Notes: generated by a model not told the origin, from the letters alone. A DNA stretch of 53,654 bases from Patescibacteria group bacterium (GCA_042569905.1 JBHPHA010000005.1:1-53654), one strand, 5' to 3'; positions 1-32,815 are shown, counted from the stretch's first letter. Made by a program: numbers and translations.

Positions 1-700
1 TTGTGTGAATACAATTCTGATTTCTCTCAAAATTAATGAAAAATTCTTTAACAACCTCTTTTCCAAATCTATTTACAGATTTTACTGAAATGATATTAAC
101 CCCTTCTTTTAGACTAAGCTCCTGAGAAAACTCACCGTCTTCATTTACACTAATTTTCTTATCATTAATAATAACCTCATTTTCCCTATCCGTTACACCT
201 TCAAACACCATATAACTGCTACTTACAGTTTCATGAGAAAGAATTGGGTGCCTAATTATCAACCGAGGAGTTGACACAAAACTGCTAAACTCTTTATATA
301 AATAGAAAAATGCCAGAGAAAATATAATAAAAATTGCAACCGCACCTATTATCTTTGGTGTAATAATAACTCCAGATATATTCACACTGCTCTTCTTTTT
401 TTTACCATTCGATGCTGTCTTTTTTATATTCCGTCTAATACCTCTTTCTTTTTCAAATAACAAAATAAGTTTTTTAGTATCCCCACCAACATAATCAGAA
501 TAATTTCTCACAAAACCTCTAACATAAACATCAGCAGGTAATTTTCCATACTCACCATTCTCAAGAAGCTCTATATACTTAGCCTGAATTCTAGTATGTT
601 TAGCTGCCTCATTCAAACTAATTCGCCTATCTTCTCTCATTTTCCTAAGTCTTTCCCCTAAAGTCAAAGACTTAACTTTTTTTCTCGTAAAACCATTCAT
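1..700 (-). CDS. RodZ-like helix-turn-helix membrane protein (partial; runs off the window start)
   Basis: Not in the ORF track. Manual translation from ATG at 700 gives MNGFTRKKVKSLTLGERLRKMREDRRISLNEAAKHTRIQAKYIELLENGEYGKLPADVYVRGFVRNYSDYVG, a RodZ-type HTH with the LP..VYVRGF motif. A TM segment follows. It lies downstream of ftsK, a common arrangement. Confidence 0.85.
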   Translation of the reverse strand, partial: MNGFTRKKVKSLTLGERLRKMREDRRISLNEAAKHTRIQAKYIELLENGEYGKLPADVYVRGFVRNYSDYVGGDTKKLILLFEKERGIRRNIKKTASNGKKKKSSVNISGVIITPKIIGAVAIFIIFSLAFFYLYKEFSSFVSTPRLIIRHPILSHETVSSSYMVFEGVTDRENEVIINDKKISVNEDGEFSQELSLKEGVNIISVKSVNRFGKEVVKEFFINFERNQNCIHT

Positions 701-4297: not shown

Positions 4298-4349
4298 TAC
4301 AAAAAAACCATTCAAACTCCCCACAAAGATACTGAAAATAGTCCAAAAC

Positions 4350-4385
4350 AAAAAACCATCCCGACAAAATCAGGGTGGTTTTTTT
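4350..4385 (-). terminator. likely terminator of the ribosomal operon (bidirectional)
   Basis: A-run, ACCATCCCGA..TCAGGGTGGT hairpin, T-run; downstream of rpsI. Confidence 0.7.
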
Positions 4386-4514
4386 ATAGAAAGTAGTTTT
4401 GGAAAATATTATTCTTATTCACAAAAAACATTGAATCATCAAGCCGCATTAAGTATGAAGATATGATTTGTTCTTAGGAAAATAAAGCAAATTTGTAAAA
4501 ACCAAAGACGGTTT

Positions 4515-22012: not shown

Positions 22013-22549
22013 CTATTTTCCTTCACCGTCTCCACTGAAGATGCTTTTAATCCCATGCCCAATACCCTTCACATATTCACCAGTCTTTTTAGCACCCCAT
22101 TTAGCTGCACCGACAGTGGCATCACCAATCATTCTGCTCCTATTAAGCTCGGTCTTCGTGACCGATAAATCATCCTCGGTGTCGAATTAACCATCCTTAC
22201 CAGAAGAAAGAGCTGTGTAAGCTATGTACATTCCATCAGGATCATCCTCGCGAATGACTTGAATCATGCCTCCCCATGCATCAATCTCCTGCGAATATCC
22301 AGTCGGCGCTTCGCTTTTTCTCGCCTCTATTGCAACTTCGGTAAGAATTTCTGTAGTCTCAACTGTTTTATGAGTGACTAAATAATGAATCCCGAAACCT
22401 GTAGCTATGAGCGCCAAGATGCCTCCAATCACCCATAAGAAAGCACTTTCGTTTGAGCCATCACCTCTTCGATTACCGCCTCCAACAGCTCCAATAAGTC
22501 CACAAAAAAGTTCCCCAAAAAGTTCCCCAATAAACTCAAACATAGTCAA
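22013..22549 (-). pseudogene. membrane protein with a GspG/pseudopilin-like DxWG..SxGxDG..TxDD motif, interrupted by an in-frame TAA
   Basis: The frame continues past TAA at 22187-22189: SSGKDG*FDTEDDLSVTKTELNRSRMIGDATVGAAKWGAKKTGEYVKGIGHGIKSIFSGDGEGK, ending at TAG 22013. Confidence 0.7.
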
Positions 22550-22734
22550 TCCCCCTTATTGTTTTTGTTAACCATCAGCGACTAGCAAGTCCCGTGTCTT
22601 AATTTAAAATAACTACCCCTAATCAACATAAAATATTACTACAGACTGAACAAAAAGTCAATACGTAATACTAATTTTAACAAAAAAATAAGGTGAAAAA
22701 TCATTATAATCTTTCACCCTTAAGTTAACTCGTC

Positions 22735-23010
22735 TTATATTAGATTTGAAGAGAAAATAGCTACAACCCCGATTTCAGAGTCAAAATCCAACAACTCCTC
22801 ACTTTCCATATCTCGACTTTCACCATAACAGATAACCCGAAATTTTCCTCCACATTTCTGACAAATAAAGCTCTTGCAGTCACCAACCCTCATCACATGA
22901 ACAACTTTCGAAACATCGCGATCAACACCACACAACCTATTTCCAGCAAGATATCCTTTGGTTGATATTTGACCACCACAAACAATACTATTATTGACTA
23001 CTTTACTCAT
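22735..23010 (-). CDS. small Cys-rich hypothetical protein
   Basis: Overlaps the stop of the upstream ORF (ATGA coupling); CQKC motif; terminator at ~22685-22720. Confidence 0.6.
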   Translation of the reverse strand: MSKVVNNSIVCGGQISTKGYLAGNRLCGVDRDVSKVVHVMRVGDCKSFICQKCGGKFRVICYGESRDMESEELLDFDSEIGVVAIFSSNLI

Positions 23011-23231
23011 AATAATCTTCCCCGAGCATTCTTTTGATTCATCAGCCTCTCGTGATCCATCAAATCCTTAATATTGATAAATATTTTTATCGTATTACCA
23101 CATCCAGAACAAATCAAATCAATACGCTCAACTCGTAAATCAATTTTAGACAAATCATTCACTAATCTACAATTAGCGCACCCCACTAACTTATATTGAC
23201 CAAGAGTAAGATCAAATCCATTTTTCTTCAT
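23007..23231 (-). CDS. small zinc-ribbon-like hypothetical protein
   Basis: AAGGAG SD; CANC..CSGC. Confidence 0.65.
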   Translation of the reverse strand: MKKNGFDLTLGQYKLVGCANCRLVNDLSKIDLRVERIDLICSGCGNTIKIFINIKDLMDHERLMNQKNARGRLL

Positions 23232-23254
23232 TTCTTCTCCTTTTTTAAAGTACT

Positions 23255-23340
23255 AAAAAAACTGACCCACCAAGGCCAGCTTATTTTTATCAAGAAAATT
23301 TTTCTAAATCTTACTTCTGAACAAAAACAAATTGACCTCT
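23255..23340 (-). promoter_or_regulatory. attenuator (antiterminator/terminator) after a Phe-rich leader peptide
   Basis: Terminator AAGCTGGCCT-TGGT-GGGTCAGTTTTTTT; the segment AGGTCAATT in the leader can pair with the terminator 5' arm. Confidence 0.7.
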
Positions 23341-23400
23341 GAGGCGAGCCCAAAAGAAGAAAAAGAAAAAATATGAAATTTTACTAATTTGTCTTTGCAT
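23311..23400 (-). CDS. aromatic-amino-acid (Phe-rich) leader peptide, 29 aa
   Basis: MQRQISKISYFFFFFFWARLRGQFVFVQK, directly after a TTGCAT-16-TATAAT promoter (23421-23448). Confidence 0.7.
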   Translation of the reverse strand: MQRQISKISYFFFFFFWARLRGQFVFVQK

Positions 23401-23513
23401 AAGTTTATATTAATAACTTTATTATATTCCTTTAATAAAATAATGCAAATCAACAGATAAATCGCAAATTAAAAAGGAAGAAATTTCATTGAATTTCTTC
23501 CTTAAAATAGATA

Positions 23514-23699
23514 TCAGTAGAAATAGATAGAAGCACTTTTTTTCCTCTTCTTTAATGCCTCTATCACCTCATCTATACCAGCTTCGCGCTCAATATTTGA
23601 TAATCCCTTGAGCTCTTGAATTTTTTTAATAATGTCAGAAAACTCATCCTCAAATGAATTATTTTTATTCGCAACATGAGAAAATAATTGAGATGCCAT
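23514..23699 (-). CDS. small hypothetical protein
   Basis: Strong AAGGAGG SD; terminator hairpin at ~23470-23505. Confidence 0.55.
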   Translation of the reverse strand: MASQLFSHVANKNNSFEDEFSDIIKKIQELKGLSNIEREAGIDEVIEALKKRKKSASIYFY

Positions 23700-23717
23700 A
23701 ATAACCCTCCTTTTTTA

Positions 23718-23942
23718 TTACCAAGTACAAGGCCTTGTTTTTTTCAATGGACCATTGCAGCTATGCAGTACGCCTCTGACAAATTTTTGCCTCGTCATCT
23801 TTCCTACACGCTTCAACCCACACTCAACATTGTCACAGCTCCAGCAATACGTAACACTTTCCGACTTAAAATACTGACAACCAATAATCTTACTACACGC
23901 GGAACAAAAAATTCTCAAAGTTAAATTACTAATTTCACACAT
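23718..23942 (-). CDS. small Cys-rich hypothetical protein
   Basis: Start moved to ATG 23942 (AGGGG SD, after the T-box terminator); CSAC..CWSC plus further Cys residues. Confidence 0.6.
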   Translation of the reverse strand: MCEISNLTLRIFCSACSKIIGCQYFKSESVTYCWSCDNVECGLKRVGKMTRQKFVRGVLHSCNGPLKKTRPCTW

Positions 23943-23986
23943 AATTATTCCCCTATTTTCACTAGTTAAAGAACTATTTTTCCAAC

Positions 23987-24270
23987 AAAAAAAACTCCTC
24001 ATCCTTATGCGCATAATTCACATAAGAATTATGTGAAAGGACGAAGAGTCTTCGTGGTACCACCTTTTTTTATGAAAATAAAAATCACCCCGTGGGTGCC
24101 ATACTTCCATCTCATCAACTTTTACTCAATAACAAAAGAGTCAACATTGATTATCCCATGATTACGGAGGATGCCGAGATTCCACTAACGCAGAAGCCAC
24201 TTTTTTGATTATTTCATCAAAAGAATCAGACCCAGCCCTCTGAGAAATCAGAGGATCTAATTCATAAGTT
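23987..24270 (-). promoter_or_regulatory. T-box riboswitch-like leader
   Basis: Antiterminator AAAGG-TGGTACC-ACGAAG/CTTCGT-CCTTT with the 7-nt UGGNACC bulge; competing 13-bp terminator ACTCTTCGTCCTT/AAGGATGAGGAGT plus T-run; CCGTAA F-box-like motif; promoter TTGACA-16-TAAGAT at ~24293-24320. Stem I is atypical. Confidence 0.75.
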
Positions 24271-24412
24271 TTATTATTTTTAAAGTAATTTTATCTTAAC
24301 AAAGGTGCATATTTTGTCAAATTTAATCAAAAATATCAAAATTAAAAGCCCTCTTTGAATTCAGTGCACATTGGCACAAAAAACAAAAAGGGCTGTTCTT
24401 CTTATCTCCGTA

Positions 24413-25018
24413 CTACTTAAAGTACTGATCTCTTGTTAGCTTATAGTCAAACCCATCAGACAAAGCCTCTAAATTAGCATCATTAATATTATGCGAGACG
24501 CTTGCAGTTACCCATGAACACTCCTTATCCTTAAATTCAATAGCAACTCTAACCTTAGCATCAGATCCAATATTGCAGTTGGAAGCCATAGCCACATTAT
24601 AATCCACTAATTCAACTTCCTCGAGGCTCTTAAATATTCTGGACAATGCTTTTTTTATTACATTATTAGTTGCATCTACGGGACCATTTCCACTAGAAGC
24701 AGTGTGAACTTTTCCTGCTCCTGCGATGTTAACTTTGATAATTGCCTGCACCAATGAATCCCTATCCATACGATACTTATGATTGTCCAATTTGTATTCT
24801 ATGATTTCAAAAAATTTATGCCTAAAACCTTCCATTCCATACACAATAAGCTCCAACGTTGCAGGTGCATCTAAAATACAATAACCCTGATCATCTAATC
24901 CTTGGAGTCTTTCGACGATATCATCTAAATCCCCATCTCCAGTCTTTAACTTCCGACCTCTTTCCTCAAGAAGAGCAATGGCACATTTCTCGTAATCCTC
25001 TCTAGTAACTACACGCAT
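24413..25018 (-). CDS. stand-alone C-terminal linker and allosteric domain of the citramalate/isopropylmalate synthase family
   Basis: LQGLDDQGY..ATLEL, AIIKVNI..GNGPVDA, VELVDYNV, GSDAKVRVAIEF..SW..VSHNI..ALSDGFDYKL resemble the CimA C-terminus. No TIM barrel. AGAGG SD before ATG 25018. Confidence 0.8.
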   Translation of the reverse strand: MRVVTREDYEKCAIALLEERGRKLKTGDGDLDDIVERLQGLDDQGYCILDAPATLELIVYGMEGFRHKFFEIIEYKLDNHKYRMDRDSLVQAIIKVNIAGAGKVHTASSGNGPVDATNNVIKKALSRIFKSLEEVELVDYNVAMASNCNIGSDAKVRVAIEFKDKECSWVTASVSHNINDANLEALSDGFDYKLTRDQYFK

Positions 25019-25099
25019 AAACAAACCTCTTTTTCTGAAATTTATGTTTGATGAAAAAATCACATAGCTGCGTAATATTTCAGCTACATGAAGACTATC

Positions 25100-26704
25100 C
25101 TACAGAATACTTTCCAAAAGCCAGCTGTAGCAATTAGCAAACGCCTGAGCTGAAGCTTGGTTTGTGTCAGGATGAACAGAGCGACCTACATGAACTTGAT
25201 TTACTCCATTGGAAACACCAATTCGAGCATAAGCATCTGCAACTGCATCTGATCCTTTTCCCAAAGATACTGCGTGCCAATTATCCAGCTCTATTTCCAG
25301 CCCATTAATTTGTGGAAAATGTCGACCCACAATCGCATGAACTGCATTCATAATGGCATTATAAGGACCATTACCAATACCAGCTGCAATCTCAATTACA
25401 CCTCCTATCTCCATCTTGACCGTAGCAGTTGGAAGAGTTCCAGATCCGCCGATTGCCTGGCAATCGATAATCTTTAAATAATTAGGAATCCCAGAAACAG
25501 CATCCTGAACAACCGCCGCTAACTCCCTATCATTCAATGGGGACCCATTCTTAGAAGTAGATATATCCTTGAATTTTTCAAAGATCAGACCTATCTGATC
25601 ATCCTTGATATTAAAACCAAGTTTGACCAACCTATGCAGTAGTCCGTCTCTTCCAGATGATTGAGTAACTTCTACAGACAGTCCTTTGTGTCCATACACC
25701 TTCGGATCCCAACTATAGTAAGCACTACTCTTTCCCTGTTGCTTCGCACGAGCCTCAATTAATTGATGTGTACCAGAACTAACAATAGCGTTCTGAGCTC
25801 CAACAACAACCCAATGACGAGGCACTGACATTCCCAAAGCATTAGCAACATGATTAACAATAGTAACGCACATTTTTGAATCAAAATCTATTTCAACTCC
25901 AGAGAAAACATCTCTGCGAGAATTGATATTCATAATAATAGACTCAAAAGCGGTCATTCCACTTCGCTCACCTAGACCATAAAAAGTTCCCTCAATCTGG
26001 CTAACTCCAGCATTGATAGATTGAAGTGCATTTGCATTAGCGCAACCACTATCATTATGACAATGGACTGAGACCACCACACTCTTCAACTCCTCAATAT
26101 TATCAAACAAAAATGCAATCAGCTCACCAAACTCGCTTAAAACTCTGAGCCCCGTAGTGTCCGCAATATTAACCCTTGTTACACCAGCATCAATGACTGC
26201 TTTGATAATTTGAACCAAAAAAATTCTCTCAGTTCGAGCTGAATCTTCTGGAGTATATTGAATATGCTCAAATCCTATTGACTTCGCATATTCCACCATC
26301 TCAATAGCTCGTTCAATAACCCATTTTCTTTTTCCCTCAGGAGAATCTCCGTATTTTTCAGAATCAAATTGAGTAAGTAAAAATTCATCACTAGCTGGAA
26401 TATAAATATGAACCATATCACACCCAGCAGTTTTTACCGCATCAATATCCGCTTTAGTGGCCCTAGCCAATCCTGATAATATCGGCTTTTTATTCCCATT
26501 CCACGATTCAACAAATTGAACAATTCTTCTGCATTGCTTCATCTGCTCCTCAGAGCTACCTGGAAAACCTATCTCAATAGCATCTATTCCACCTTTCAAT
26601 AAAAGTCGCACATATTCAGATTGATCTCTTGGAGACATTGCCCCATTACTCACCTGAGCCGACTCTCTTAAGCAAACATCATTCAACAAAACCTTTTTAC
26701 GCAT
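25100..26704 (-). CDS. leuA: 2-isopropylmalate synthase-like DRE-TIM metallolyase
   Basis: DVCLRESAQ, IEIGFP, EDSART, NIADTTG, SVHCHNDSG, GLGERSG, and a C-terminal regulatory domain (PTATVKM..GNGP). Confidence 0.8.
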   Translation of the reverse strand: MRKKVLLNDVCLRESAQVSNGAMSPRDQSEYVRLLLKGGIDAIEIGFPGSSEEQMKQCRRIVQFVESWNGNKKPILSGLARATKADIDAVKTAGCDMVHIYIPASDEFLLTQFDSEKYGDSPEGKRKWVIERAIEMVEYAKSIGFEHIQYTPEDSARTERIFLVQIIKAVIDAGVTRVNIADTTGLRVLSEFGELIAFLFDNIEELKSVVVSVHCHNDSGCANANALQSINAGVSQIEGTFYGLGERSGMTAFESIIMNINSRRDVFSGVEIDFDSKMCVTIVNHVANALGMSVPRHWVVVGAQNAIVSSGTHQLIEARAKQQGKSSAYYSWDPKVYGHKGLSVEVTQSSGRDGLLHRLVKLGFNIKDDQIGLIFEKFKDISTSKNGSPLNDRELAAVVQDAVSGIPNYLKIIDCQAIGGSGTLPTATVKMEIGGVIEIAAGIGNGPYNAIMNAVHAIVGRHFPQINGLEIELDNWHAVSLGKGSDAVADAYARIGVSNGVNQVHVGRSVHPDTNQASAQAFANCYSWLLESIL

Positions 26705-26947
26705 CCCAAATCCTCCAAAAAATGATTTTGGTTTTCTAGCAATACAGTGCTAGATTTATAAAAGAACCTTTAAGCTAATTCAAAAGATAGCTTATTTTTA
26801 TCAATAAAATTCAAACTACTCTCACTTTACGGATAAAAATAAATTTTCTTACTACCAAGTTAAGACTCGCTTGAGCACTAGGAAATAATTTATGTAGCAA
26901 CGGACACATTCTCCGTTACTACACGTTATTAACACGTTTGCTAATAA

Positions 26948-27229
26948 TTATTTTAATGACGTATAATCATCCTCGATCACTCTTAGTTTATTGCTATTTG
27001 CATGATCGGCAGCAATCGCATATATCTCGTAAAAATTATGCGTATTTTCCTGCAATAAAATTTTACTATTTGCCGAAAAAGATACCTTATTAAAAGACCC
27101 TTCCTTAACGACATCTTCTGATAATTTAATTAATATATCCTCCTCACCACAAATCTCAAAAGTAATGCCATATGCCACACTAGTGGAAAACCTAAAATTC
27201 TCCAATATCTGAACTGCTATCGATAACAT
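26948..27229 (-). CDS. hypothetical protein
   Basis: AAGGAG SD; first ORF after the ILV-type attenuator. Confidence 0.6.
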   Translation of the reverse strand: MLSIAVQILENFRFSTSVAYGITFEICGEEDILIKLSEDVVKEGSFNKVSFSANSKILLQENTHNFYEIYAIAADHANSNKLRVIEDDYTSLK

Positions 27230-27296
27230 ACAAATCTCCTTTAAAAAAATGTTTAATCGATTTACCCACTTACATCAACTTGCTACTAAAAAGAAC

Positions 27297-27382
27297 AAAA
27301 AAACTGACTTTAGGTCAGTTGCTTTTTTGTGAAAATATTTTTTATAAAATTAGTTTATTTTTACACAAGCAATCCAACCTCT
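27297..27382 (-). promoter_or_regulatory. attenuator after a branched-chain-amino-acid leader peptide
   Basis: Terminator AACTGAC-CTAAA-GTCAGTTTTTTT; antiterminator AGGTTGGATTGC pairs with GCAACTGACCT (11 bp, one bulge). Confidence 0.72.
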
Positions 27383-27442
27383 TTGCGCTTCCGCTAAGAG
27401 AGTAATAATCACATCAGTAATAAATATATCTTTTACTTGCAT
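27350..27442 (-). CDS. Ile/Val/Leu/Thr-rich leader peptide, 30 aa
   Basis: MQVKDIFITDVIITLLAEAQRGWIACVKIN, after a TTGACA-16-TATAAT promoter (27477-27504). Confidence 0.65.
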   Translation of the reverse strand: MQVKDIFITDVIITLLAEAQRGWIACVKIN

Positions 27443-27556
27443 CAAACTAAGTTTTATAAATTAATTCCACACTACTATTATACATATTTTTATATTTTTG
27501 TCAAAAAAAAACCCGCGTAAGAATACGGGTTTTCTATTCACACTTACTCTAAAGGC

Positions 27557-30500
27557 TTAATTTCCACCTGTGCTTTCAACAATCCACCAATCAAACTCGA
27601 TATTATCAGCAGTAATCTCAGTAACTCCAATATCGAATCCCTCTTCAATTTTCACATTATCTGAGAACAAGGTGAGACTAGTAGCACTCCTTGGTGTCAC
27701 AAATATCCTACTATCATCACTAATTGCCTTAGTTTCAATAAAAATAGTCTTTCCATCATTCACGATTCCCTCTTCTGTGTTGTCGTCAATCCAATTACCA
27801 TCCTCATCCACTGGCATTGACTCACTTGTCAGGTCATCATTTCCATCTTCATCCGCGTCTTTTGGAATTGCATTTCCAGAACAATCATCTAGGTCATCCT
27901 CATCCTCATCTACTGGAATCACTGAACAGATTGTTGCTCTACCGATTGTTGGAGCTTCATCATCATCTATTGTAATGACGAAACCTTTTCCTTCTACTAT
28001 CTCTGCTTTCAGGTTTCCTTCTAACGTTACATTCCCATCTCCATCTTTAGTGATGAAATTATCTGTGTTAATTGCTAGCATAAAGTCCAGAATTGCCTCA
28101 TCTTGAGTTTTAAGCTCTTCAATTTCTTGAATTTGTCCTTGGAGCTGTGTTTCTAGTGCCAGTTGATTACTTATTTGAGTTTGAATTAGGTTTAAATTTT
28201 CTGTGATTCTTGTTTCAATTTCAATGATTGTCATGTTTTGTGTAGCCAACTGATCACTCACTGTTAGTAAGTCAGTATTTTGCTGATCATCTGAAAGCTT
28301 GATGTCATTTATTGACAATCCCACTAATGCTAATTGTTCGTCAATTGAAGTCTGAAGCTCTGTCAAAGTTGAGGCGTTCTGGTCTGTTTTGAGACTAACA
28401 TCACCAATCACAGTTTTATTTTCGCCTGTCTTTTCTAATAACCCCTTAACTCCAAACAGAGCCACACCTGCCATATCTGTTGCCTTAACATTTGTATCTG
28501 ACGCTCCGAGTCCAAATAATTTATAGAAATCCTGAGCAGTTGGTCCAATATGTCTAATCTCTTCATCGCTCATCTTATTGTAGTCTCCCTCATTGATGAA
28601 ATTCCATTGCATAATTGGAAGAATTGACATTCTATTGAAAAACTCACTTGTATCCAAATTCACATCTGATCCGTCCGCATATTCAATCGCATCAATAGTA
28701 GAGCCATTTCCATTCCATGTTCCTAATCCCACAGGATTCACAGTAACATCGCTAAGTTTAGTAAAGTTTTCCTTCTTATTTCTATCAGACACATCTGTCC
28801 AACCAGAAGTTGTTCCATAAGTATCTGAATCCAATTCAATTAAGTGAGTTGGGGCTGTTGCAGCAGCACCAATACCAAAAGATCCATCCGCAATAAACCT
28901 TGCCCTTTCAGTGGATCCACTTCCTGTGTAAAAAGCAATTTCTCCTGAATCATTACTATTTAATATCTGAACATTACCGGTTGAAGCCCTATTACTAAAC
29001 TGAGCATTATTTAACGTAGTATATGAAACCAATGCTCTAGCTATACCAGTAGAGTCGTTAATTTTATAACCTTGAGCGTTATCTAAAAGCACACTTCCTG
29101 AGTCAATAACCAGTTTTTCATTTGGATTTGTTATTCCAATCCCAGCATATCCTCGTTCGCTAATAACAAAATCAACATTATCACTCGAATCCCTGACAAT
29201 GAATTGAGCTGGTAATTTATCTGGAGATGTATCATTTGCATTATCTGAAAACGCCGCACCTACTGTCAAACTTGTGTCACTTGCAATTGCCATCACCGTT
29301 CTTGTTTGCCCCGTTACTGTAATTCTATCTCCCACGATCAATTCATCTGTAAATATCGTCCCCACACCCGTTACTGTTGTGCTTGCAACAGGATCAATTG
29401 TTCCTGTCAAGACTGTAGTAGTCGCTGCAGTTGTTCTTGTTGTTCCTGCAACATCCAGCATTGTCTCTGGAGAAATCGTTCCAAGACCGATTCCATTATT
29501 CCTGATTCCTCCCGCTCCATCTGATTCAGCATAAACAGTTAGAATGCTACTTCCATCAATCATTGCGCTGTAACTTTCCACCGTACCAATAGATGCAGAT
29601 GATGTCACTGGCATATCTACCCATGAGACCGCTCCACTATTTGCAGCAAATTCCATTGCTCCAAGATATGCGCTTCCTGCTACCTCAAGATCCCCTGAAA
29701 CCATCACGCTGTCACTCGCTGCTGCAAGCGTTGATGATGTTGAACCAATGTGCAGCGCTACTTCTGGAGTTGCGTTTCCAATTCCTAGGTAATCACTCGT
29801 ATCATCCCAAAACAAATTAGAATTATCTTGAGAATAAACCCCACTAGCTCCAGCAAAAACTAACGAACCGGTTGTAAATTGTGTTGCTGTTCCGGTTCCT
29901 CCATTAGCTGCAGGAAGAGTTCCTGAGACATGAGTTGAAAGTCCAATCTTTCCCCAACTTGGTGAAACCCCTACTCCTCCAGAGATTAGTGAGTTTCCTG
30001 TAGCTACTCCTGCTAGTTTTGATAGGGTCGTTGTTCCTGATGCGTAAATCAAGTCTCCTACTGTGTAAGACGCTAGCCCTGTTCCTCCTGTTGCGACTCC
30101 TAGAGTTGCTGAAACAGACCATGTTCCACTTGAAATGGTTGGTACTCCAGTTGAACTTGATGTGTCAATTCCTGTTCCTCCATAGGTTGCTCCGATTGCA
30201 GTTCCATTCCAAGTTACGCCTGAGATTGTTGAGTCTAGATTAATTGTTGCTGTATCAGTAGCTGATACAGCTGAGGTTAAGTTAGTTCCACCTGCAATTG
30301 TTAACGTATTCCCATTTTGCACTGTCTCACTTCCTGAATCTCCTGCCAATGTAAAAGATCCTCCTGCTCCTTGTCCTGAATAGAAAGTAGTCTGACCTGA
30401 TCCATCCCCAATAACCAATCTATTATCATCACTATCCCACTCAATCACAGCCTCTGTAGTTGGTGTCGGAGTTGCTGAATTAACTAAAGTTATTGCTGAA

Positions 30501-32815
30501 GTTCCAATTGTACCACTAGCTATTGTTAGATTATTTGCGACCAGTGAATCAGGAAGTGTTGCTGAAACAGACCATGTTCCACTTGAAATGGTCGGAACCC
30601 CTGTTGATGAGCTTGTGTCTATTCCTGTTCCTCCATTAGCTGCAGGAAGAGTTCCTGAAACATGAGTTGTGAGTCCAATCTTTCCCCAGCCTGGAGCTAC
30701 TCCTACTCCTCCAGAGATTAGTGAGTTTCCTGTTGCTACTCCTGCAAGTTTTGATAGGGTCGTTGTTCCTGATGCGTAAATCAAGTCTCCTACTGTGTAA
30801 GACGCTAGCCCTGTTCCTCCTGTTGCGACTCCTAGAGTTGATGAAACAGACCATGTTCCACTTGAAATGGTTGGTACTCCAGTTGAACTTGATGTGTCAA
30901 TTCCCGTTCCTCCATAAGTTGCTCCGATTGCAGTTCCATTCCAAGTTACGCCTGAGATTGTTGAGTCTAGATTAATTGTTGCTGTATCAGTAGCTGATAC
31001 AGCTGAGGTTAAGTTAGTTCCACCTGCAATTGTTAACGTATTCCCATTTTGCACTGTCTCACTTCCTGAATCTCCTGCCAATGTAAAAGATCCTCCTGCT
31101 CCTTGTCCTGAATAGAAAGTAGTCTGACCTGATCCATCCCCAATAACCAATCTATTATCATCACTATCCCACTCAATCACAGCCTCTGTAGTTGGTGTCG
31201 GAGTTGCTGAATTAACTAAAGTTATTGCTGAAGTTCCAATTGTACCACTAGCTATTGTTAGATTATTTGCAACCAGTGAATCAGGAAGTGTTGCTGAAAC
31301 AGACCATGTTCCACTTGAAATGGTCGGAACCCCTGTTGATGAGCTTGTGTCTATTCCTGTTCCTCCATTAGCTGCAGGAAGAGTTCCTGAAACATGAGTT
31401 GTGAGTCCAATCTTTCCCCAGCTTGGAGCTACTCCTACTCCTCCAGAGATTAGTGAGTTTCCTGTTGCTACTCCTGCAAGTTTTGATAGGGTCGTTGTTC
31501 CTGATGCGTAAATCAAGTCTCCAGTTGTGTAACTAGCCAGTCCTGTTCCACCATAAGCAACTCCAATAATTGAACCATTCCAAGTCGTTCCTGAGATTGT
31601 TGAACCTAGATTAATTGTAATTGTGTCAGTTGCACTAGCTACTGTTGAGATGTTTGCTCCTCCTGCAATTTCCAGAGTGTTTCCATCTTCAATAGCTTGA
31701 TCTGTTCCAGAGTCTCCTGAAAGAGTGAAGTCGTTGAAAGTCCCTCCTGATGATACTGTTTCCCAAGATAGTGTTGGCACTCCTGCATTCCAATTGAATC
31801 TTAGATATTGCGCGTCATCTCCAGCCACACCATCTAGTGATGCCAGAGCGGTTGAGCTTGATGCATATGGAACTGAGCCTGGCACTAAAGTAAGTGCATT
31901 TAGATAACCTAATTCAGTCAGACTTGAACCTCCAAATGTTTGAGTTGAATTAAAAGTAATATTTCCAGTCATTGTTCCCCCTGTAGTGTCCAGATAGTTT
32001 CCTGTAGCGCTACCAATGTCACTGTAAGTTATTCCGTCGTTTGAGTACTGCCAAGTTGAACTTGCTCCGTTGTATCTCAAAGCTGGTTTTGCTGAACTGT
32101 TTGAAACAGTTAGATCAAAGTTATTTGAAACAGCTTTGTTTCTTCCTAGATTGAAAGTTAGAGATTTTGTTCCTGTGTCTGTGTTTTGATCATGCAGTCT
32201 GTCGTCGTCTCCTTGAACGTAGTCGCTATCTCCTGTTCCTGTTGGAATGAATTCTTCATCAATTTCTCCGTCTTCATTTAGAACAATGAGCTTATCTTCT
32301 TTTGATCCAATTGGCAAAAGGTCTGAGCTAATCTCTCCATCTTCATTCAGGATTGGAATATTATCTTCCCCTGTTCCCACAATATAACCTTGAAGTTTAT
32401 CTGAGTTTAGAGCCAAAGGAACATATCCAATTGGTTTTCTTGGTTTTGATTCTGAATCATTCTCAATTTTAATTCCTATGTAGTATTCTTTTTCTGAGAA
32501 ATCTATGTCTTCTGGAAGATTTTTATCTTGCCCTAATTGAGTATCAAAGAGCCCACCCTTAACTTCTACGTCTTGGGTTTCTGACCATTCACTGCTTCCT
32601 CCTGTTTTTGATGTGTATATTGCAAATCTTACTGAGTATGTTCCATCACTTACCGCTTCATTATTTTTATCGAGGATATATGCTGAAATATCTAGCGCTT
32701 TGTCTATTTGAGCTAGTGCTACTTGAGTAAGTAAAAACAGCCCACTCACCAAGAGTAGTATTATAGATAAAAGAAGGGTTTTTATCGATTTATTTTTGTT
32801 TCTATGATTGAACAT
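27557..32815 (-). CDS. large secreted/surface fibre-like protein with an intramolecular chaperone (peptidase S74-like) domain
   Basis: Signal peptide; G/S/T-rich GGTG repeats; GIG..P..L repeats; SDRNKKENF..IMQWNF..HIGPTAQDF chaperone motif; coiled coil; acidic C-terminus. Confidence 0.85.
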   Translation of the reverse strand: MFNHRNKNKSIKTLLLSIILLLVSGLFLLTQVALAQIDKALDISAYILDKNNEAVSDGTYSVRFAIYTSKTGGSSEWSETQDVEVKGGLFDTQLGQDKNLPEDIDFSEKEYYIGIKIENDSESKPRKPIGYVPLALNSDKLQGYIVGTGEDNIPILNEDGEISSDLLPIGSKEDKLIVLNEDGEIDEEFIPTGTGDSDYVQGDDDRLHDQNTDTGTKSLTFNLGRNKAVSNNFDLTVSNSSAKPALRYNGASSTWQYSNDGITYSDIGSATGNYLDTTGGTMTGNITFNSTQTFGGSSLTELGYLNALTLVPGSVPYASSSTALASLDGVAGDDAQYLRFNWNAGVPTLSWETVSSGGTFNDFTLSGDSGTDQAIEDGNTLEIAGGANISTVASATDTITINLGSTISGTTWNGSIIGVAYGGTGLASYTTGDLIYASGTTTLSKLAGVATGNSLISGGVGVAPSWGKIGLTTHVSGTLPAANGGTGIDTSSSTGVPTISSGTWSVSATLPDSLVANNLTIASGTIGTSAITLVNSATPTPTTEAVIEWDSDDNRLVIGDGSGQTTFYSGQGAGGSFTLAGDSGSETVQNGNTLTIAGGTNLTSAVSATDTATINLDSTISGVTWNGTAIGATYGGTGIDTSSSTGVPTISSGTWSVSSTLGVATGGTGLASYTVGDLIYASGTTTLSKLAGVATGNSLISGGVGVAPGWGKIGLTTHVSGTLPAANGGTGIDTSSSTGVPTISSGTWSVSATLPDSLVANNLTIASGTIGTSAITLVNSATPTPTTEAVIEWDSDDNRLVIGDGSGQTTFYSGQGAGGSFTLAGDSGSETVQNGNTLTIAGGTNLTSAVSATDTATINLDSTISGVTWNGTAIGATYGGTGIDTSSSTGVPTISSGTWSVSATLGVATGGTGLASYTVGDLIYASGTTTLSKLAGVATGNSLISGGVGVSPSWGKIGLSTHVSGTLPAANGGTGTATQFTTGSLVFAGASGVYSQDNSNLFWDDTSDYLGIGNATPEVALHIGSTSSTLAAASDSVMVSGDLEVAGSAYLGAMEFAANSGAVSWVDMPVTSSASIGTVESYSAMIDGSSILTVYAESDGAGGIRNNGIGLGTISPETMLDVAGTTRTTAATTTVLTGTIDPVASTTVTGVGTIFTDELIVGDRITVTGQTRTVMAIASDTSLTVGAAFSDNANDTSPDKLPAQFIVRDSSDNVDFVISERGYAGIGITNPNEKLVIDSGSVLLDNAQGYKINDSTGIARALVSYTTLNNAQFSNRASTGNVQILNSNDSGEIAFYTGSGSTERARFIADGSFGIGAAATAPTHLIELDSDTYGTTSGWTDVSDRNKKENFTKLSDVTVNPVGLGTWNGNGSTIDAIEYADGSDVNLDTSEFFNRMSILPIMQWNFINEGDYNKMSDEEIRHIGPTAQDFYKLFGLGASDTNVKATDMAGVALFGVKGLLEKTGENKTVIGDVSLKTDQNASTLTELQTSIDEQLALVGLSINDIKLSDDQQNTDLLTVSDQLATQNMTIIEIETRITENLNLIQTQISNQLALETQLQGQIQEIEELKTQDEAILDFMLAINTDNFITKDGDGNVTLEGNLKAEIVEGKGFVITIDDDEAPTIGRATICSVIPVDEDEDDLDDCSGNAIPKDADEDGNDDLTSESMPVDEDGNWIDDNTEEGIVNDGKTIFIETKAISDDSRIFVTPRSATSLTLFSDNVKIEEGFDIGVTEITADNIEFDWWIVESTGGN
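29895..31522. repeat. intragenic 732-bp tandem repeat (~2.2 copies)
   Basis: Identical blocks recur at 732-bp offsets (AAGTCTCC ends at 30058, 30790 and 31522), giving a 244-aa protein repeat. Confidence 0.95.

Follow-up and report, generated by a model that had tools for sequence, protein, structure and literature searches.

The window analysed here is a stretch of 53,654 nucleotides (nt) from a Patescibacteria group bacterium (GCA_042569905.1 JBHPHA010000005.1:1-53654), whose assembly comprises 1.12 Mb in 63 contigs with 35.5% G+C and is 85% complete. At 27297..27504 it carries a short element that we call the ILV element after the Ile, Leu and Val codons in its leader open reading frame (ORF), and we consider it very likely that this element is a ribosome-mediated (leader-peptide) transcription attenuator and a member of a scaffold family conserved in one order of small-genome Patescibacteria. 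All of its parts lie on the minus strand, where, in 5'->3' direction, the terminator of a gene for a protein of 1752 amino acids (aa) is followed by a promoter, a putative 5' untranslated region (UTR) of ~27 nt, the ORF, an A/T-rich hairpin and a terminator. The parts are:

27477..27504, minus strand: sigma-70-type promoter, TTGACA, 16-nt spacer, TATAAT (12/12 matches in a sequence scan)
27431..27470, minus strand: region 1, that is, the putative 5' UTR, the start codon and the first codons (minimum free energy (MFE) fold)
27350..27442, minus strand: leader ORF MQVKDIFITDVIITLLAEAQRGWIACVKIN, 30 codons plus TAA, in the same register as the Phe leader of the window and the Val leader of the related genome G002
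27395..27412, minus strand: variable sensor run, codons 11-16, GTG ATT ATT ACT CTC TTA (VIITLL)
27374..27380, minus strand: region 2, AGGTTGG, codons 21-23, 5' arm of the outer antiterminator helix
27320..27371, minus strand: central hairpin, which fits both states and has the stop codon in its loop (fold)
27297..27320, minus strand: intrinsic terminator, AACTGAC, 5-nt loop, GTCAGTT and T-run (scan and fold)

The 5' arm of the terminator (27312..27318) doubles as the 3' arm of the antiterminator, and the extent of region 1 follows from a predicted transcription start (~27470).

The ILV element resembles a second leader in the window, the Phe leader, whose ORF MQRQISKISYFFFFFFWARLRGQFVFVQK is located at 23400..23311 on the minus strand. 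Counted from the ATG through the T-run, each of the two elements is exactly 146 nt long, and the ungapped alignment of 27297-27442 with 23255-23400, which had been suggested in an initial annotation of this DNA, yielded 75/146 identities, as compared to 44.2 ± 5.4 in 1000 dinucleotide shuffles, none of which was as high. Upon removal of the ATG and the last 30 nt there were 55/113 identities, and again 0/1000 shuffles were as high. The gapless likeness of the two leaders that this annotation had described is thus borne out, and its details are present as well: both leaders start with ATG CAA, have the variable run at codons 11-16 and AGA GGT at codons 21-22, and end in corresponding terminators (AACTGAC..GTCAGTT plus T-run versus AGCTGGCC..GGTCAGT plus T-run). 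The proposed 11-bp antiterminator helix holds for the consensus of three sequences, whereas the ILV element itself has 7 contiguous outer pairs (AGGTTGG/CTGACCT), which stack on the central hairpin. A BLASTN search of the own genome with the Phe element did not recover the ILV copy, and a script scan of this genome for small ORFs with homopolymeric runs in front of terminators gave the Phe leader as the only clear case. The search for further variants in the genome was successful in part, as it returned one decayed third copy, described below, and no fourth copy when nhmmer was run with the three local copies as query.

In a BLASTN search with the element against 61 relatives nearly all matches were AT-rich noise, the exception being a match (E 9.3e-6) in G004, a genome of the window's own family, to a Phe leader, MRNSMVITNWFFFFYFFTKKRGWFVFADKK, which measures 145 nt and has the layout of the 146-nt local copies. 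RNAalifold on three sequences returned the antiterminator as predicted consensus structure, and the covariance model R1, built from those three sequences, was used to search 151 genomes of one order with a counting cut-off of E <= 0.1. Full-length matches were obtained in 78/151 of these related genomes and in 18/21 other genomes of the window's own family, the best E value being <= 1e-3 in 56/151 genomes (manual count). Pairs were counted in A8, an alignment of 78 elements from 68 sources to which 34 further regions had been added; two MAFFT alignments, A3 and A5, were structurally inconsistent and were excluded from these counts. In A8, which was fitted to the model structure and thus favours pairing, 83.8% of the cells pair, as compared to 71.8 ± 0.6 after column shuffling (0/500 as high). 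Sliding the partners by 1-3 columns reduced pairing to <=60%, a control which argues that the pairing signal is genuine. Both-sided changes were found in 22/24 pairs. Family helix 1, the outer antiterminator, is 91% paired with both-sided changes in 9/11 pairs, and helices 2 and 3, which form the central hairpin, are 74% and 82% paired. The terminator has a stability at or below -7.0 kcal/mol in 78/78 elements (range -19.0 to -7.0 kcal/mol), its mean being -13.0 kcal/mol with the own 3' arm versus -7.85 ± 0.30 kcal/mol with arms permuted among the 78 elements. The comparison of these genomes thus demonstrates a common scaffold with two mutually exclusive predicted helices that covary, and the covariance model on which the annotation had made its proposal depend recovered further homologs in which both the antiterminator and the terminator helices covary.

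A second covariance model, R2, comprises 75 elements, all taken from genomes other than that of the window. It matched the ILV element (27442..27297) in full length, at model positions 1-147, with 67.7 bits and E 1.2e-9, a score in the upper range of the family, and the Phe element with 117.3 bits and E 1.1e-18. This match bears on the idea that the ORF is a small gene in its own right, encoding, for example, a type I toxin or a functional micropeptide, or else that it arose by chance in AT-rich intergenic DNA with an ordinary terminator behind it. The peptide is indeed short and hydrophobic, the long fold-back of the 5' and 3' parts of the RNA recalls type I toxin mRNAs, and we estimate that a 29-codon open frame has a ~7-13% chance at this composition. 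That the element is recognised by an independent model, however, that conservation is at the level of the RNA helices with the codon run changing freely, that charged residues are found inside the hydrophobic stretch, and that the neighbouring proteins have no PADLOC or PHROGs matches renders this explanation extremely improbable. R2 also gave a weak match over its full length at 4349..4490 of the window on the minus strand (26.6 bits, E 0.034), a site with a TTG start and a strong terminator after a 169-aa ORF that we judged to be probably a plain terminator region. Contig C4 of the window's own genome (G000, ~222..262, both strands) has a bidirectional terminator whose stem, CTGACC..GGTCAG, is also that of the leader terminators; this stem is therefore not exclusive to attenuators.

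Strong variation in the family is confined to one segment, in which 70/78 elements have, starting ~10 codons after the ATG, an in-frame codon run specific for a single amino acid or amino-acid class. According to this run the elements were assigned to the following sensor classes:

Phe: 30 of 78 elements
Aromatic mix: 15 of 78 elements
Mixed Ile/Leu/Val: 7 of 78 elements
Leu: 4 of 78 elements
Ile: 3 of 78 elements
Val: 2 of 78 elements
Asn/Asp: 1 of 78 elements
Other: 8 of 78 elements
No ATG-started ORF (several GTG or TTG starts): 8 of 78 elements

Comparison of the loci shows that the sensor type tracks the function of the downstream gene across the family. Behind aromatic leaders, 9 loci encode the gamma subunit of a 2-oxoacid:ferredoxin oxidoreductase, 3 encode prephenate dehydrogenase, 2 prephenate dehydratase and 1 an ACT pair. 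The leuA of G002 has a Leu leader in front of it and the 531-aa citramalate-synthase-like gene of that genome an Ile leader, the Asn/Asp leader is followed by a gene for an Mqo/DAO-type oxidoreductase, and many other leaders precede genes for small proteins without family. With full-length copies in about half of the genomes searched, helices that covary and codons that vary, the idea of one modular scaffold whose specificity is changed by swapping the sensor codons has held up well.

The nine relatives in which Phe or aromatic leaders head 2-oxoacid:ferredoxin oxidoreductase operons are L038 (G004), L051, L054, L056-L059, L062 and L065, the operon of G004 consisting of the gamma subunit followed by a ferredoxin-like delta subunit. 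This arrangement suggests that the oxidoreductase is an aromatic-specific enzyme, perhaps making phenylpyruvate by reductive carboxylation. Many leaders, and also the T-box of the window, have as their first gene a Cys-x2-Cys zinc-ribbon-like or other Cys-rich ORF of 45-200 aa that belongs to no family; examples are 23942..23718, 23231..23007 and 23010..22735 in the window (minus strand) and L068, L038 and L067 in related genomes. They are too divergent for phmmer (best E 0.007).

A promoter-like site with at least 9/12 matches was found upstream of 73/78 elements, and 32 of these 73 have only 6-9 nt between the end of the -10 hexamer and the leader ATG, which suggests that the sensing ORFs are translated from transcripts that are leaderless or almost so. 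Leaderless translation fits this promoter spacing and would explain why a Shine-Dalgarno motif is missing in the family, a Shine-Dalgarno-like motif being present in 5/78 elements only. The same scarcity, which includes the ILV element, might instead indicate that the attenuator responds to a trans-acting factor (an RNA-binding protein, a tRNA or a small molecule) and that the ORF is incidental. The C-terminal RGQFVFA-like peptide would agree with this, since its codons coincide with the antiterminator arm and the central hairpin and its conservation is due to that of the RNA, and a tRNA-sensing T-box is located in the same island. The segment that varies is, however, an in-frame codon run whose amino acid fits the downstream pathway, the leaderless spacing accounts for the missing motif, and no riboswitch or T-box model of Rfam matches the element; we therefore regard sensing by a trans-acting factor as very improbable.

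For the ILV element itself, G002, a genome of the same family, provides the closest comparison. On its contig C12 a Val leader with small ORFs is followed by a Leu leader with leuA, an Ile leader with the citramalate-synthase-like gene, a T-box with a zinc-ribbon ORF and trpCBA, and a Phe leader with a zinc-ribbon protein. The island in the window comprises the ILV leader with a 93-aa ORF, the decayed copy with a leuA-like gene (of a different clade), a 216-aa remnant, a T-box with a zinc-ribbon ORF and a 61-aa ORF, and the Phe leader with zinc-ribbon ORFs. Due to this matching order we take the ILV leader to be the positional ortholog of the G002 Val leader MQKLWLTIENIVVVVVLGNEGRLAFANMR. Both leaders have 34 nt between the -10 hexamer and the ATG, similar 5' UTRs, and the same number of codons (22) between the aligned point and the stop, and the position of VIITLL is occupied by IVVVVV in the G002 ortholog and by FFFFFF in the Phe copy. 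A long-range helix between regions 1 and 2 is predicted in the MFE fold of the ILV element (z = -5.0, 0/200 shuffles as stable) and also in the G002 ortholog (z = -3.7). Between the two, both-sided changes were found in 2/10 shared long-range pair columns by automatic mapping, and four more compensated pairs were identified by eye in the start-codon segment (GCAAGTAA/TTGCTTGT versus GCAAAAGC/GCTTTTGC).

These features suggest how the ILV element might operate. Transcription would start from the consensus promoter and the 30-codon leader would be translated. A ribosome that reaches the stop codon in the loop of the central hairpin would unwind the 5' arm of this hairpin, which is the base on which the antiterminator stacks, so that the terminator (27320..27297) would form and transcription would stop. 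A ribosome stalled on codons 11-16 (Val, Ile, Ile, Thr, Leu, Leu) would leave region 2 free to pair with the 5' arm of the terminator on top of the central hairpin, thereby sequestering this arm, and the polymerase would continue into the 93-aa ORF and possibly on to the leuA-like gene. Without translation the 5' UTR and the start codon would pair with region 2 as an anti-antiterminator, again allowing the terminator to form. Translation of the leader and stalling are what we infer from this arrangement, and the folding calculations are in line with it: the 88 nt that follow a ribosome stalled at the last sensor codon favour the antiterminator fold, with -16.1 kcal/mol versus -12.5 kcal/mol for the best terminator-containing fold, and with a ribosome at the stop codon, or without ribosome, the terminator is predicted.

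Several observations weigh against the element being a functional attenuator. With a single ribosome at codons 11-16 folding still predicts the region 1:2 helix together with the terminator, and antitermination therefore needs region 1 to be masked. As the sensor is located about one ribosome length past the start codon, a second ribosome at the ATG could mask region 1, which is speculation. In addition, the start codon is base-paired in the full-length fold, a Shine-Dalgarno motif was not found upstream of the leader ORF, the terminator hairpin (-7.3 kcal/mol) is among the weakest of the family, and the fitting of A8 to the model structure is to be counted here as well. The sensor run is not enriched beyond chance: Ile, Leu and Val make up 11/29 residues of the leader ORF (P = 0.069), and windows of 6 residues with at least five of them, as in VIITLL with 5/6, occur in 11.8% of the 2071 ATG ORFs of 25-35 codons in this genome, in which the F6 run of the Phe leader is found once (1/2071). 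Consequently, the amino-acid specificity of the ILV copy is putative. The first target of the leader is an orphan ORF without homologs, and both a 10/12 promoter-like site inside this ORF (27159..27132) and a 13-bp hairpin after it (26924..26892) could uncouple leuA from the leader. Finally, the island looks decayed, with its citramalate-synthase remnant, a T-box that lacks trpCBA and a decayed scaffold copy. The assignment to an ILV type in the initial annotation thus has no basis in enrichment within this ORF but stands by analogy with six mixed Ile/Leu/Val leaders in relatives and with the Val5 run of the G002 ortholog, and on these grounds the amino acids sensed would be Ile, Leu and Val.

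Part of this evidence would also be expected if the element were a relic that descends from a working Val-type or branched-chain attenuator, whose sensor has drifted and which now acts as a constitutive partial terminator or has no function. The unenriched sensor next to the clean Val5 run of the G002 ortholog, the decayed island including the missing trp genes, the weak terminator, the orphan downstream ORF, and the fact that the leuB and leuCD families were not found in the assembly all point in this direction. On the other hand, the 12/12 promoter, the open 30-codon frame, the antiterminator, the terminator with its T-run and the compensated region 1:2 helix are all intact, and the R2 score lies in the upper range of the family. 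Moreover, six further elements, all from other genomes, have mixed Ile/Leu/Val runs as well, which means that this type is not confined to a locus in decay. Altogether, we regard a relic as unlikely and a working attenuator as the preferred interpretation.

Downstream of the ILV element the following features were identified:

26948..27229, minus strand: first downstream gene, 93-aa ORF with a good Shine-Dalgarno motif (AAAGGAGA), no known family
26772..26909, minus strand: third, decayed scaffold copy (local alignment and fold)
25100..26704, minus strand: leuA-like gene, 534 aa, HMGL-like and LeuA_dimer domains
24413..25063, minus strand: 216-aa protein with a LeuA_dimer domain only (TIGR00977 match)
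23972..24274, minus strand: T-box leader with GGTGGTACCACG box (Rfam RF00230, below gathering)
23255..23449, minus strand: paralogous Phe leader, comprising promoter, ORF (23400..23311) with F6, antiterminator and terminator

The location upstream of leuA claimed for the element is correct insofar as a leuA-like gene lies further downstream, 592 nt past the ILV terminator and behind the third copy, but the first gene is the orphan 93-aa ORF. For the latter, and for the other small downstream ORFs, no usable homologs were obtained from Pfam, NCBIfam, PHROGs, PADLOC, a search of 5.8 billion proteins, the ESM Atlas or phmmer against ORFs of related loci; a GYG motif seemingly shared with small ORFs that follow other ILV leaders could not be substantiated. 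Read-through from the leader as far as leuA is putative. Directly upstream of the leader promoter, 27557..32815 (minus strand) encodes the 1752-aa protein, which has an N-terminal hydrophobic segment and long internal Gly/Thr/Ser-rich repeats and is probably a surface protein.

The leuA-like protein scores below the equivalog cut-offs of NCBIfam. A search of 319 genomes of the order gave orthologs with 48-53% identity in 4 other genomes, and a 401-genome sample of the class gave no further ones; a scan of genome contigs added 2 loci, both duplicates of genomes already counted, and a scan of metagenome contigs gave only relatives at 30-32% identity. Each of the four orthologs is directly preceded by a promoter, a Leu-rich short ORF (MKHYTAQNLLALLLLVEEGFCVG, MKYHATQNLLALLLLVEEGFCVG, MKYHQSQNLLTLLLLIEEGFCVG and MKHYMNQNLANLLLLQKESFCAG) and a terminator, the runs being NLL(A/T)LLLL in three cases and NLANLLLL in the fourth, and one of the four genomes has a second tandem leader. 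In 4/4 of these leaders (L020, L021, L029 and L030) the -10 hexamer ends 6 nt before the ATG, which suggests that they are translated leaderless. Between their two groups (g14 and G301) the 5' arm of the terminator changes from CCTGAC to CCGGC, and, as read from the sequences by eye and without a tool count, the antiterminator arm (GTGTTGGG to GTGCTGGG) and the terminator's 3' arm (GTCAGG to GCTGG) have both changed in a compensating manner. R2 gave 19-27 bits (E 0.03-0.8) exactly at the coordinates that had been assigned by eye to the four leaders, which may thus be distant relatives of the scaffold at best. A public record titled Micavibrio sp. (L025) has a leuA leader region identical to that of G051; since G051 groups with Moraniibacteriota-like genomes at genus level, this label looks wrong.

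Iso_dh (leuB) and Aconitase (leuCD) families were found neither in the window's assembly (85% complete) nor in the three g14 genomes with a leuA-like ortholog (96-100% complete), and G301 has an Iso_dh match while Aconitase was not found. Thus, the leuA-like enzyme appears to be an orphan step, although it is located behind Leu leaders in relatives. A class IV aminotransferase is present in 4/5 genomes that hold the leuA-like gene.

The third scaffold copy aligns with its segment 26845..26789 to the central hairpin of the Phe leader (57 columns, 1 gap, 42 identical by manual count; z = 6.6, 0/1000 shuffles as high). It keeps a 32-codon ORF (26909..26811) and the central hairpin but has neither a sensor run nor a clean T-run, and GGTAGT may alternatively pair with the arm AAGCTA of a hairpin AAGCTA..TAGCTT in a manner like that of antiterminator and terminator. 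Its nhmmer E value of 3.8e-13 was obtained with the copy itself in the training alignment, and R2 gave a partial match only (16.7 bits, E 2.2). We read it as a decayed tandem attenuator on the basis of these residual features. The 216-aa ORF matches positions 341-521 of TIGR00977 (citramalate synthase) with E 1.7e-33, and G002 has the full 531-aa homolog at this place, so the ORF probably represents what truncation has left of the C-terminal part of a citramalate synthase; alternatively, it might be a stand-alone amino-acid-binding protein. The T-box (44 bits in Rfam versus a gathering threshold of 93) has its own promoter-like site (24320..24293) and terminator, and its mean column identity with the T-box of G002, which heads a zinc-ribbon ORF and trpCBA, is 84%; the one in the window is without trpCBA. 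Its short stem I with GCTGGG suggests a putative Trp (TGG) specifier.

No Rfam 15 family matched the element at gathering level, a tRNA being the only such match in the whole window, and at E <= 10 nothing but noise was found on 27297..27442. Matches to Leu_leader and Trp_leader (22-24 bits, below gathering) fall on the terminator of the upstream gene, 27503..27595. Leader-peptide attenuation is a textbook mechanism, the known examples being mostly separate, operon-specific leaders, and the leader of ilvGMEDA senses Ile, Leu and Val at once. The enterobacterial ilv (ilvGMEDA/ilvBN) and leu leaders (RF00512) share with the ILV element a short ORF that holds regulatory codons, a protector helix upstream, and a terminator overlapped by an antiterminator. 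In contrast to them, the ILV element has no homology in sequence or structure and no Shine-Dalgarno motif, and one Patescibacteria scaffold serves many amino acids in hosts without most of the pathways.

The nearest concept is the Leu/phe leader (RF01743), in which a single motif reportedly carries either Leu or Phe codon runs and which thus is a precedent for one motif with alternative runs. RF01743 was absent among the matches at E <= 10 in 22500..28000, and the ILV element is not a member of it. The Patescibacteria family differs in spanning at least seven sensor classes in 78/151 genomes and in that many copies look leaderless. The Leu/phe leader motif, from Lactococcus lactis, is among those listed by Weinberg et al. 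2010 (PMC2864571). T-boxes (RF00230) likewise switch with amino-acid status by a choice between terminator and antiterminator, and one is located in the island of the window (24274..24034), but they read uncharged tRNA directly and have a GGTGGTACCACG box, whereas the ILV element has neither this box nor a T-box score. Mycobacteria have leaderless Cys-responsive short ORFs, the sensing ORF being translated from a leaderless transcript. The actinobacterial and mycobacterial leaders are, like the present ones, comparative-genomic attenuators outside Proteobacteria, in a different phylum and with no shared scaffold. For Actinobacteria, leader-peptide attenuators were predicted by comparative genomics in the work of Seliverstov et al. 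2005 (PMC1262725). In the searchable full-text literature, which covers few subscription journals and is no proof of absence, there was no report on leader-peptide attenuators in Patescibacteria or the candidate phyla radiation. Judged by scaffold and predicted helices, the ILV element genuinely belongs to the leader-peptide attenuator family newly delineated here, in which the sensor codons are exchangeable, and its presumed mechanism is the textbook one.

We tentatively propose, as a possibility short of even odds, that one portable cassette, consisting of promoter, often leaderless ORF, central hairpin and shared arm and retargeted by rewriting about six codons, is the order's main amino-acid sensor. 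It would control leftover biosynthetic and salvage enzymes together with orphan small or Cys-rich proteins as a starvation regulon, and in the long-UTR subtype to which the ILV element belongs, antitermination would depend on a second ribosome that is held at the start codon, trailing the stalled one by about ten codons, and masks the anti-antiterminator.

About half of the related genomes in the search contain the scaffold. Coming with at least seven sensor classes, it constitutes a natural experiment in reprogramming specificity by codon swaps alone, and its compact, modular design is a possible template for engineered amino-acid sensors. The sensor of a leader may further serve as a functional label for genes of unknown role: a Phe leader in front of a 2-oxoacid:ferredoxin oxidoreductase operon makes it likely that the operon is aromatic-specific, and for many orphan small proteins the leader names the amino acid to whose starvation they would respond. 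For the biology of these bacteria, the family is evidence that species believed to rely on partners for their amino acids may still monitor the supply of charged tRNA gene by gene.

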